64,000 bases of DNA from Selaginella moellendorffii (GCF_000143415.4 NW_003314279.1:854091-918090), one strand, 5' to 3'; counted from the stretch's first letter, positions 14,664 through 18,204 are shown. Numbers and translations: made by a program. The notes: a model not told the origin generated them from the letters alone.

Positions 14664-17600
14664 ATGGCCATCAAATCGGGTGAAGTCCAAACTGAGGTAT
14701 GTGATCCAGTCCCTAACTCAAAGTTACTCATTACACGAGCAACTTTGGTAGAGAGTCGTTCGCGACATTTACTAGCCCTCCGAGGAAAGCTCGGAGGTAG
14801 CTTTGTTAAGATCCTTATTGACACGGGTGCTTCGGATAATTTTGTGGCTGCAGACATAGTCTGGCACGCCGTACTAACGGTGCAGCGGCTAGGCGAACCA
14901 AGGACTATAGAGTTTGTTCAAGGTAGCCAAAGCACTGATGAGGTACTTCGACAAGCGAAGTCGAAGTAGGGACATGGAAAGTGGACATGGATTTCACCAT
15001 GTTGGACATGGCGGGATTTGACGTGATCTACTGGCGAATGCCCAAGGAAAAAGATCTAGGGTGGAGGCCCAGGATCTAAAGGTAGAGCAAAACAAGGCCA
15101 AAGAATCCTGCTTAAACCTGGTGTCCACGAGAGGACAACTCACTAAAGGAACTAAGGTAGCATTTTTGTGCTTACTCTCGGTGAAGAGTGACAAAAAGAT
15201 AGGAATGGAAGAAGTACCTTTAGTGATCCAATGGGTGTTTGACCAATTCCAGGATACCATGCCGGAGGAGTTACCGGCGGGGTTGCCCCCCGCACGACCG
15301 ATAGAACATAAGATTGAGCTGGTCGAGGGTGTTGAGGCGGTGGTTTGTCCCCCCTATCATTTCAACGAGAAAGAACTCGAGGAGCTCAAGCGCCAACTAG
15401 AGGAGTTGGTGGTCAAAGGGTATGTTAGGTTGAGCAAATCACCGTATGGGGCGCCGGTGTTATTTGTGAAAAAGAAAGATGGATCTATGCGCATGTGCAT
15501 AGACTACCGATTGCTCAACAAGTATACAAAGAAGAACAAGTACCCTTTGCCCAGGATTGAGGACCTGTTCGATAGGTTGGGAAAGGCAAAATACTTCTCG
15601 AGGATTGACCTAAGGTCAGGGTACTACCAGATCAGGGTAGCCGAGGAGGATGTCGAGAAGACAACCTGTCGAACGAGGTATGGGAGCTTTGAGTTTCTAG
15701 TGATGCCCTTCGGGCTATGCAATGCGCCGAAAACGTTTTCGGTGCTGATGAACCACATCTTTGTACCTTATCTGGATCACTTCATGGTCGTCTATATCGA
15801 CGACATCCTGATCTATAGCGAGACGCTAGAGGAGCATGCCGAACACTTGGCGAAGGTGTTTGAGAAACTAAGGGAACACAAACTATATGCTAAAGAGAGC
15901 AAATGTGACTTTGCTCAACAAGAGGTAAAGTTTCTTGGGCATGTGGTAGGCCAGGACGGGCTCAAGGTGGACCCGGAGAAGGTCCAAGCGATCCAGGAAT
16001 GGGAGCGACCATCGAATGTACATGAGTTGAGGGCGTTCTTGGGGCTATGCAACTACTATCGAAAGTTTATCAGACACTATTCGAAAGTAGCCCTGCCCTT
16101 AACGGACCAAACAGGAAAAGGGAAGATGGTATGGACAGCAGAATGCGAGGCGACATTCATCCACCTCAAAGGGAAGTTGAGGAAGGCTCCTGTATTGGCA
16201 TTACCAGACTTTGGTAAGGACTTTGAGGTAGAAACTGATGCTTCGGACTTTGCGTTGGGCGCAGTTTTGAAGCAAGACAACCATCCAGTAGCGTTCTTCT
16301 CGAAGAAGTTGGACAAAGCTCAAAGGAAGTGGCCTGCCCACGAGAAAGAATTGTTTGCAGTGGTCAAGGTGCTCAAGGAGTGGCAACACTACCTTGGGAG
16401 ACACTTCAAGGTTTATACGGACAATGTGGCAACGAAACACTTCTTGTCACAGCCCGACTTGAGAGGGAAACAAGGTCGATGGGCCAATGCCTTGGCCGAG
16501 TTTGATTGCGAGATTCTGTACAAGCCTGGGAAGAGCAACATCGTGGCGGATGCGCTAAGTCGAAAAGCGAGCTTGAGGTTGGCGATATCCAGCGCAACAG
16601 CAACCTTTTGGGACGATGTGCGGACAGCATATGAGAACGATGGTCTAGCACAAGAAGTGTTGCTGAGGAATCTAGAGGCACGGGAAGCTCACCAGAGAGG
16701 AGAGCTGCCAACGAAAGAGAAAACGGGCTATGCGGAACGCAACGGACTCATCTATTACAAGCAAACGAGGGTGTATGTTCCAGAAGGGGAACTAAGGAAG
16801 GTAGCCTTAGAAGAGTGTCATGATGGACCTCTTGCGGGACACGGTAGAGTGCCCAAGACGATGGGCTTACTCAAGAGGAAGTACCATTGGTCAGATATGC
16901 CTAAGGACGTCCAAGACTATATAAAGACATGTCCAACATGTCAGCAGGTCAAAGCCGTGACTAAGGCTAGTGGGGGCTTGTTGCAAAGCATCCCAACTCC
17001 AGATCATCCGTGGAAGTGTCTTACTATGGACTTCATCACGGGACTTCCCCCAAGCGAGGGGTTTGATGTGATATTCGTGGTGGTGGACCGATTTTCAAAA
17101 ATGGCACATTTCATACCCACCACAACGGAGGTGGATGTGGAAGGTGTGGCGAAGCTATTCTTTGAACAAGTGGTTCGAGTGCAGGGAAGACTGGAAGAGA
17201 TCATCTCAGATCAAGATAAGATCTTCACCAGTAGGTTCTGGAGGACTCTCTTGGAACAGTATCGCACCAAGTTGAAATTCAGCACAGCCTATCACCCACA
17301 GACAGGTATGGGGTATTAAGTCAAGTTTGTTGGCACTAACACTTCTTGACAGACGGACAAACGGAAAGGGTGAATAGGCAGCTGGAGGATTATTTGCGAT
17401 GCTATGTCTCGGGAGACCAGACCGATTGGGTAAGTCATTTGGGACTTGCGGAAATGTGTTATAACAACTCACCACATTCGAGTATCAGGGTGAGTCCATG
17501 GGAAATCATCAATGGGCGAGCTATTGAAAGTCCTGTGGAACTCGGCATGGCCGAGTATCATGGAGAGTTACCTGCAGTGGAGGCATTCACAGCGGAAAGA

Positions 17601-18204
17601 CTCAGCATTTGGAATCTAGTGAGGGATTCCTTGGAACGGGCTCAACAAAGGCAAACCAAATACGCGAACCAGAAGCGTCGGGATGTAGAGTTCCAAGCTA
17701 GGGAGAAGGTGTGGTTGAACACCAAGAACCTCAGGCTACCAAGTGGGATCAGCCGAAAGTTGACCCAAAGGTAAAAATGCATGTATTCCTGAAAATGAAT
17801 TGATCTTGAGTTCCGTAAGCAGGTTTGCGGGGCCTTACGAGATTGAAGCACGAATCGGTAAAGTGGCTTACCAACTCCGACTTCCTCGAGAGATGGGGAA
17901 GATGCACCTAGTGTTTCACGTGAACTTACTCAAGCCATACTTTGAGGATCCGCTTCGCAAGGACCAAGTGAGACCTTTAGCTGAGGTTATCCAAGGGGAA
18001 GAGGAATACGAAGTCGAGGCTATCCTCAATGCGCGCAAGAGCAAGCGACAAGGACGCGAGGTGAGAGAGTTCCATGTGAAGCGGAAAGGATTTCCACACT
18101 GCAAAGCAAAATGGGAACCGGAGGAGAACCTAGCGAACGCGCGAGATCTAGTGGAGGAATTTCTACAAGGTAGAACTCTATATACTTATGCAAAATTCAA
18201 TTAA
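14664..18204 (+). CDS. A2 Pol (protease frameshifted; RT-RNase H-integrase-chromodomain open after removing two introns)
   Basis: LIDTGAS protease; YIDD RT; TDAS and ADALSR RNase H; H-H-C-C zinc finger, MDF and ISDQD integrase; spliced [12 protein letters not shown] and KLTQR|FAGPY; chromodomain EEYEVEAIL...WEPEENL. Segments 15061-17305, 17353-17770, 17823-18204. Confidence 0.9.
17306..17352 (+). other. Predicted spliceosomal intron 1 in integrase (47 nt)
   Basis: GTATGG...CACTAAC...TTGACAG; removal gives CAC CCA CAG ACA G|AC GGA CAA ACG GAA = HPQTDGQTE. Confidence 0.85.
17771..17822 (+). other. Predicted spliceosomal intron 2 in integrase (52 nt)
   Basis: AG|GTAAAA...TAAGCAG|G; removal gives KLTQRFAGPY (GPY/F motif). 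Confidence 0.85.

Follow-up and report, generated by a model that had tools for sequence, protein, structure and literature searches.

In a genomic stretch of 64,000 nucleotides from Selaginella moellendorffii (GCF_000143415.4, NW_003314279.1:854091-918090; hereafter the window), a Ty3/gypsy chromovirus, here called family A, carries two introns of 47 and 52 nt (I1 and I2) inside its integrase gene and a third one of 157 nt (I0) inside its protease. That these are real and most likely spliceosomal introns is very probable, because they are skipped exactly in contigs which probably represent RNA, yet they are present in the genomic copies. The reading that we favor, at a probability of roughly 0.8, is that the integrase is produced from a spliced mRNA and that new copies are made from unspliced RNA.

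Retrotransposition is classically assayed by the loss of an intron when an element passes through RNA. An integrase that needs splicing, in a family whose copies keep their introns, would provide three built-in tags which separate the translated from the copied RNA pool, and this separation of retrotransposon RNA pools would become directly measurable. In family A, a coding sequence would further have gained introns recently and in a way that can be dated, and the short-Gag splice of copia elements would have a counterpart in Ty3/gypsy. On the practical side, pipelines for the annotation of transposable elements will take families of this kind for dead ones with frameshifts.

Family A and its surroundings

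Copy A2 spans 13552-19758 (all coordinates of families A and C refer to the plus strand) and is flanked on both sides by the target-site duplication (TSD) GTTGG, at 13547-13551 and 19759-19763. Its LTR ends read TGTAAG..CTTACA; the 3' LTR lies at 18608-19758 and the polypurine tract (PPT) at 18596-18606. The 5' LTR is a remnant (13552-14652) with an N gap at 13948-14047. A2 is a dead copy, because the 3' end of this LTR, the primer-binding site (PBS) and gag are deleted and the protease is damaged by a 64-bp deletion and a frameshift.

The pol region of A2 is distributed over three reading frames (15022-17319, 17340-17774 and 17764-18204). Up to I1 (15022-17305) it matches the Pfam families RVT_1, RT_RNaseH, Integrase_H2C2 and rve and covers reverse transcriptase (RT), RNase H (RH), the integrase zinc finger and the integrase core with both catalytic Asp residues. 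The middle exon (17353-17770), delimited by frame reading and alignment with homologues, contains the catalytic Glu of the DD35E triad and a linker. The last exon (17823-18204) encodes an SH3_Tf2-1 domain (PF24626) and, at the integrase's C-terminal end, a chromodomain (PF00385, E 8e-11 in the Pfam scan).

Copy A1 is one older element (4565-8782 and 22590-25280), interrupted by a family-B LTR element (8783-22591) which itself holds A2. The 5' half of A1 comprises an LTR (4565-5695), the PBS (5699-5710), gag, the protease and the start of RT, and beyond the family-B insertion the 3' half runs from RT to the 3' LTR. Like A2, it is decayed; the LTR pairs differ at 39/742 positions in A2 and 29/230 in A1. 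The PBS of A1 is presumably complementary to tRNA-Met, an assignment which we take from the motif. A third pol region, that of family C (28056-30590), belongs to a decayed chromovirus of a sister lineage without I1 or I2.

The domain order PR-RT-RH-IN (Pfam), the chromodomain, the TG..CA LTRs, the PPT and the TSD, together with a PBS found in A1 only, place family A among the Ty3/gypsy chromoviruses. The tRNA-Met-like PBS of A1 separates it from the Tcn1 clade, whose members are self-priming and carry no tRNA PBS. Within the chromoviruses, family A may belong to the Galadriel clade, a candidate assignment to be read beside an RT-RH tree whose references carry no Galadriel labels.

Several further repeats surround these copies. 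The internal region of the family-B element has no pol match. Family B may be a non-autonomous partner of family A, because the two have in common the sequence before the PPT, arrays of 12-bp repeats and a stretch of the 3' untranslated region. Within the LTRs of family A such tandem arrays lie at 13620-13920, 18690-18970, 4620-4900 and 24730-24960, with copy numbers that vary between LTRs. Two tandem GGTTC(A/G)AGTCC motifs, which resemble a tRNA B-box, occur at 18365-18420, within the 3' untranslated portion of family A, and at 12775-12820 in family B; ARAGORN predicted no tRNA gene, these sites included. The integrase of A1 is interrupted by a 193-bp solo LTR (23056-23248; ends TGTAAG..CTTACA, TSD AGATT), presumably of the Cassandra type of TRIM elements. 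Its minus strand gives a sub-threshold match to 5S rRNA (27.6 bits against a gathering score of 38), besides which Rfam returned nothing. The terminal 6 bp are identical to those of family A, which hints that family A integrase may have mobilized it. The RT of A1 holds a short TRIM-like insertion (7755-8428) whose 162-bp LTRs are 98% identical and which has a Met-type PBS. In a family-B LTR, short nested repeats that include a Met-type PBS form TRIM-like tandem units (20974-21679). A Copia-type retrotransposon fragment (SH3_retrovirus and RVT_2; Pfam) lies at 892-1800. Among the genes, Pfam identified PPR and SOSEKI genes as well as, on the minus strand at 52930-54093, an open frame of 387 amino acids with Terpene_syn_C_2 as its only domain, which we take to be similar to the microbial-type terpene synthases of non-seed plants. 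This set of genes would agree with a land plant outside the seed plants, such as Selaginella, as the host.

The inserts in DNA, proteins and RNA

I1 (17306-17352, GTATGG...CACTAAC...TTGACAG) is a phase 1 insert in the catalytic core of the integrase, with GACAG as a 5-nt direct repeat at its two ends. I2 (17771-17822, GTAAAA...AAGCAG) is in phase 2 at the start of the SH3-like domain. Their lengths equal 2 and 1 modulo 3, respectively, which explains both frame shifts of pol, and an exon-side AG precedes each of them. Without splicing, the frame ends at the TAA at 17317-17319, four codons into I1 and ahead of the catalytic Glu. I0 (14697-14853, GTATGT..GCTGCAG) is a phase 0 insert within the open frame of the protease, whose DTG motif it includes; the exon behind it has one codon and then a stop, in A2 as in A1. 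Judged from the frames, removal of I0 would thus eliminate the protease active site and end Gag one codon later. Cuts placed at random in the pol region fall on GT..AG at 25 of 3481 positions for a length of 47 nt (0.7%) and at 29 of 3476 for 52 nt (0.8%); for 157 nt the value is 47 of 3371 (1.4%).

A1 contains all three inserts, I0 at 6952-7108 (157 nt, GT..AG), I1 at 23357-23403 (47 nt) and I2 at 23823-23874 (52 nt, GT..AG intact, CTAAT 18 nt before the end). The GT..AG ends and the branch-like YTRAY of U2 spliceosomal introns are present in I1, I2 and I0, except that the donor of I1 in A1 has decayed to CT; the branch-like heptamer of this I1 reads CAATAAC, compared to CACTAAC in A2. The inserts have passed through reverse transcription, because they are common to two insertions of different age and A2 has its own TSD. 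For the same TSD, a segmental duplication was rejected as the source of the inserts in A1 and A2. An assembly error was likewise rejected on account of the two copies and of DNA contigs that cross I1, and programmed frameshifting because the homologues align gap-free only without the extra 47 and 52 bases.

An earlier note on this DNA had described the two GT-AG inserts in the pol of A2, the corresponding inserts in A1 at equal lengths and positions with a mutated I1 donor, the uninterrupted motifs of family C, and a dead integrase as the product of the unspliced frame. All of these coordinates hold. Its anatomy was correct for the two integrase introns, and it had missed both the third intron in the protease and the non-functional state of A2. 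It had also proposed to compare the conservation of splice sites with that of intron interiors, which turned out to be uninformative: A1 and A2 differ at 4/47 positions in I1, 8/52 in I2 and 113/903 in the exons, so that introns and exons diverge equally. With only two copies, both of them decayed, this divergence speaks neither for nor against selection.

The two integrase inserts have no 12-mer in common, and besides the A1 copies the only other match of either is one of 13 nt on the minus strand, for I2. A degenerate I1-like intron pattern gave three matches in metagenome contigs, a collection poor in plant genomes, and all three were chance matches without a retroelement; one of them (contig L003, minus strand) lies within a long eukaryotic open frame that appears importin-like by eye. 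In the window, the SOSEKI gene at 36045-37720 has three GT-AG introns of 92, 66 and 78 nt (assigned by eye, frame checked), compared to which introns of about 50 nt are only somewhat shorter.

Protein searches yielded 189 homologous proteins, 184 of which align to A2 when an X is set at both breaks. The motif HPQT..GQTE, always with one residue in between (D in 153 cases, N in 2), was found in 155 of the 189, and the D..E motif in 161, each time with a spacing of 35 residues (161/161). In A2, this spacing of 35 is obtained only if I1 is cut out exactly. Within six residues of the I1 site, 172 of 173 covering homologues align gap-free; at the I2 site these are 116 of 150. Since these proteins are open frames by construction, they define the ancestral protein and not the absence of introns in the DNA of other elements. 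For the latter, family C alone is informative, and it reads through both the I1 and the I2 site without interruption. The protein searches revealed no close relative: the middle exon is at most 46% identical to longer proteins and without a match among proteins of similar length, and pol reaches about 61% or less.

A tree of the RT-RH region (406 columns) was built with those 145 of the 189 proteins that had sufficient length. In it, A2 groups as sister to family C and one further protein (support 0.97) and lies within a clade of 31 tips that includes seed-plant elements from Citrus, Vitis, Sesamum and Victoria (support 1.0). In the simplest reading, the family-A branch would have gained I1 and I2 after its split from family C.

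Sequencing data were available from 24 runs of one organism; none of the runs found to contain this sequence is registered as RNA, six of the 24 were guessed to be RNA, and four were compared with 14650-18600. Run X15 is one of those labelled RNA by guess; its assembly of 25.8 Mb comprises 70,015 records, and the contigs carry neither strand nor expression level. It has the appearance of RNA, because only two of its records match 14650-18600, compared to 41,663 in the whole-genome DNA run X1. Record 10 (2500 nt, depth 11.2) aligns to 15553-17300, 17348-17768 and 17821-18151 with contiguous record coordinates and thereby skips I1 and I2 to the base, the breakpoints being the leftmost registers allowed by the flanking repeats. 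In record 9, the skipped segment is 14695-14851, which corresponds to I0 in its leftmost register. Thus, exact removal of all three inserts from RNA was seen in one run whose RNA nature is a guess. Both records are spliced, and they are separate contigs, so no single contig phases I0 with I1 and I2. Record 10 differs from A2 in 111 of its 2500 letters (about 4.5%). The differences of the run are mostly A>G and T>C, a bias that would follow from decay of A2 together with an origin of the RNA from a younger copy. Depth in X15 declines from 11.2 to 7.21 and 7.04 in the bins of I1 and I2. Two raw RNA runs, X22 and X24, each covered to about 12%, contributed 9 and 0 reads, respectively, which is too few to bear on splicing.

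In the DNA run X1, which may itself be the source of the genome assembly, no dip in depth was found over I1, I2 or I0: the summed depth was 913,634 in the I1 bin and 879,723 in the I2 bin, with neighbouring bins at 793,543-971,367. Two of the listed X1 records cross I1 gap-free, and among the best 15 of 75 joints, the lowest with a depth of 154.8, there was no skip of 47, 52 or 157 nt. Together with the probable-RNA contig, this supports two further claims of the earlier note, namely that the inserts are spliced out and that the genomic copies keep them.

The proposed splicing model and its alternatives

According to the favored model, the unspliced RNA would encode Gag-PR-RT-RH and an integrase truncated ahead of the catalytic Glu, and it would be this pool that is copied. 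Removal of I0 would result in a short mRNA for Gag only. The full Gag-Pol with an active integrase and the chromodomain would require an isoform from which I1 and I2, but not I0, have been removed. Further, a separate RNA pool would have to escape splicing and become packaged and reverse-transcribed, as described for BARE1, where the cited passages report a distinct pool of unspliced, packaged RNA (PMC3735527). The selective packaging of unspliced RNA and the splicing gate put forward in the earlier note are predictions of this kind. I1 and I2 would be recent acquisitions of the family-A lineage. In its strictest form, the proposal holds that micro-introns were gained in the integrase catalytic core, that a three-intron programme operates in which the genome keeps all introns, Gag loses I0 and the integrase loses I1 and I2, and that spliced RNA is strictly excluded from reverse transcription, so that a high-copy family retains its introns. 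This form seems probable to us, with less confidence than the model as a whole.

The alternative that survives best has most of these steps in common with the favored model and differs on function only. Here, the introns would be real and their removal required, and no regulation would be involved: the introns would be neutral gains, arising by repair at microhomology or by introner-like insertion, whose retention would be due solely to the incidental use of the unspliced pool by reverse transcription. The direct repeat at the ends of I1 and the exon-side AG before both introns would fit such an origin. RNA folding is also in line with it, since no strong structure was predicted around the introns and the z-scores are only weakly unusual (-1.25 to -2.21), differing for I2 between the copies. 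However, both A1 and A2 are predicted to form a short stem adjoining the I1 acceptor, and spliced RNA that leaked into reverse transcription would give rise to spreading intron-less copies, none of which is prominent in X1. We regard neutral introns of this kind as possible, although unlikely.

Clearly less probable is that a low-copy, intron-less master element, a retrocopy of spliced RNA, supplies the integrase in trans and gives rise to the X15 contigs, with the intron-bearing majority being non-autonomous. The inserts would then be introns by origin, yet their splicing would not be required today. The distance of about 4.5% between the X15 contigs and A2 points to another source copy, and joints in X1 are known for the best 15 of 75 only, both of which leave some room for such a master. 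Nevertheless, none of these 15 is the expected joint, even at depths down to 154.8 compared to a summed depth of about 900,000; an intron-less master should leave intron-less progeny, whereas the X1 depth does not dip; and a copy without I0 would be devoid of the protease active site.

Hardly credible is that a defective lineage, inactivated by the inserts, was amplified by the integrase of another family, e.g., family C, with the X15 contig being an artefact or DNA: although both copies in the window are dead and the RNA label of X15 is a guess, three independent skips all fall on GT..AG at the low chance rates given above, the exons past the breaks still match the SH3 and chromodomain profiles (Pfam), and X15 lacks the thousands of variant contigs typical of a DNA run.

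Comparison with known systems

The model of a spliced integrase mRNA and an unspliced genome has several precedents, and to call such a life cycle unprecedented would be too strong in view of Ogre, EVD and BARE1 (PMC6317226, PMC5580714, PMC3735527, in the passages cited). Plant LTR elements are generally free of introns, with Ogre and EVADE as the exceptions named in the cited part of a 2025 review (PMC12786077). Ogre, a Ty3/gypsy element of the Tat lineage from pea and Medicago, carries an intron between two ORFs, the removal of which is needed for the translation of pol (PMC6317226). According to the cited passages, only some of the transcripts lose this intron, so that pol can be translated, and the genomic copies retain it (PMC6317226, PMC12786077), as in family A. 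In contrast to Ogre, family A has two introns of roughly 50 nt that break codons in the integrase catalytic core and the SH3 domain of a chromovirus. Family A is also no Ogre element by definition, as these are non-chromoviruses whose intron separates PROT from RT and which possess an additional RNase H; here, a chromodomain is present and the introns lie within PR and IN.

I0 resembles the short-Gag splice of the Ty1/copia elements EVADE/ATCOPIA93 and BARE1. For EVD, the cited part of the report describes a splice which removes the protease and shifts the frame, with a stop shortly past the junction (PMC5580714). The I0 splice likewise removes the protease and shifts the frame, with the stop one codon past the junction in A1 and A2. 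The same source, in the part cited, found no conserved short-Gag splice among Ty3/gypsy elements of Arabidopsis. In contrast to family A, whose pol would need splicing, EVADE and BARE1 are copia elements with a pol that does not. Furthermore, the spliced record of family A does not end early as in EVADE and BARE1, and continues into RT as far as the contigs show.

Outside plants, foamy viruses translate Pol from a spliced mRNA (PMC7828637, in the passages cited). Together with the Cer1 mRNA of C. elegans they represent cases in which an essential protein stems from spliced RNA and the unspliced RNA is the genome, as proposed here for family A (PMC7828637 and PMC12786077, cited parts). In foamy viruses, however, splicing removes gag to reach pol, and the cited passages describe no micro-introns in enzyme domains for either system. 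Penelope-like elements keep spliceosomal introns after retrotransposition (PMC8557442, cited part), similar to family A, but they belong to a different class without an LTR/integrase cycle.

In architecture, family A resembles those plant chromoviruses that are primed by a tRNA (Galadriel of REXdb, or club-moss elements left unclassified there), with which it has the domain order, the chromodomain, the Met-type PBS and the 5-bp TSD in common. Unlike in family A, no introns are mentioned for them in the cited parts of PMC2864245 and PMC6317226. Searches of the open full-text literature brought up no description of an LTR element with introns in its integrase, and neither did the relevant parts of PMC2864245, PMC6317226, PMC10886601, bioRxiv 2024.04.02.587720 and bioRxiv 2022.12.06.519325; subscription papers, Repbase, the bioRxiv supplements and the main REXdb tables lie outside this scope, and REXdb may list the family. 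Taken together, a splice-dependent pol with an unspliced genome is already known from other elements, and the introns inside an LTR integrase would be the new part.
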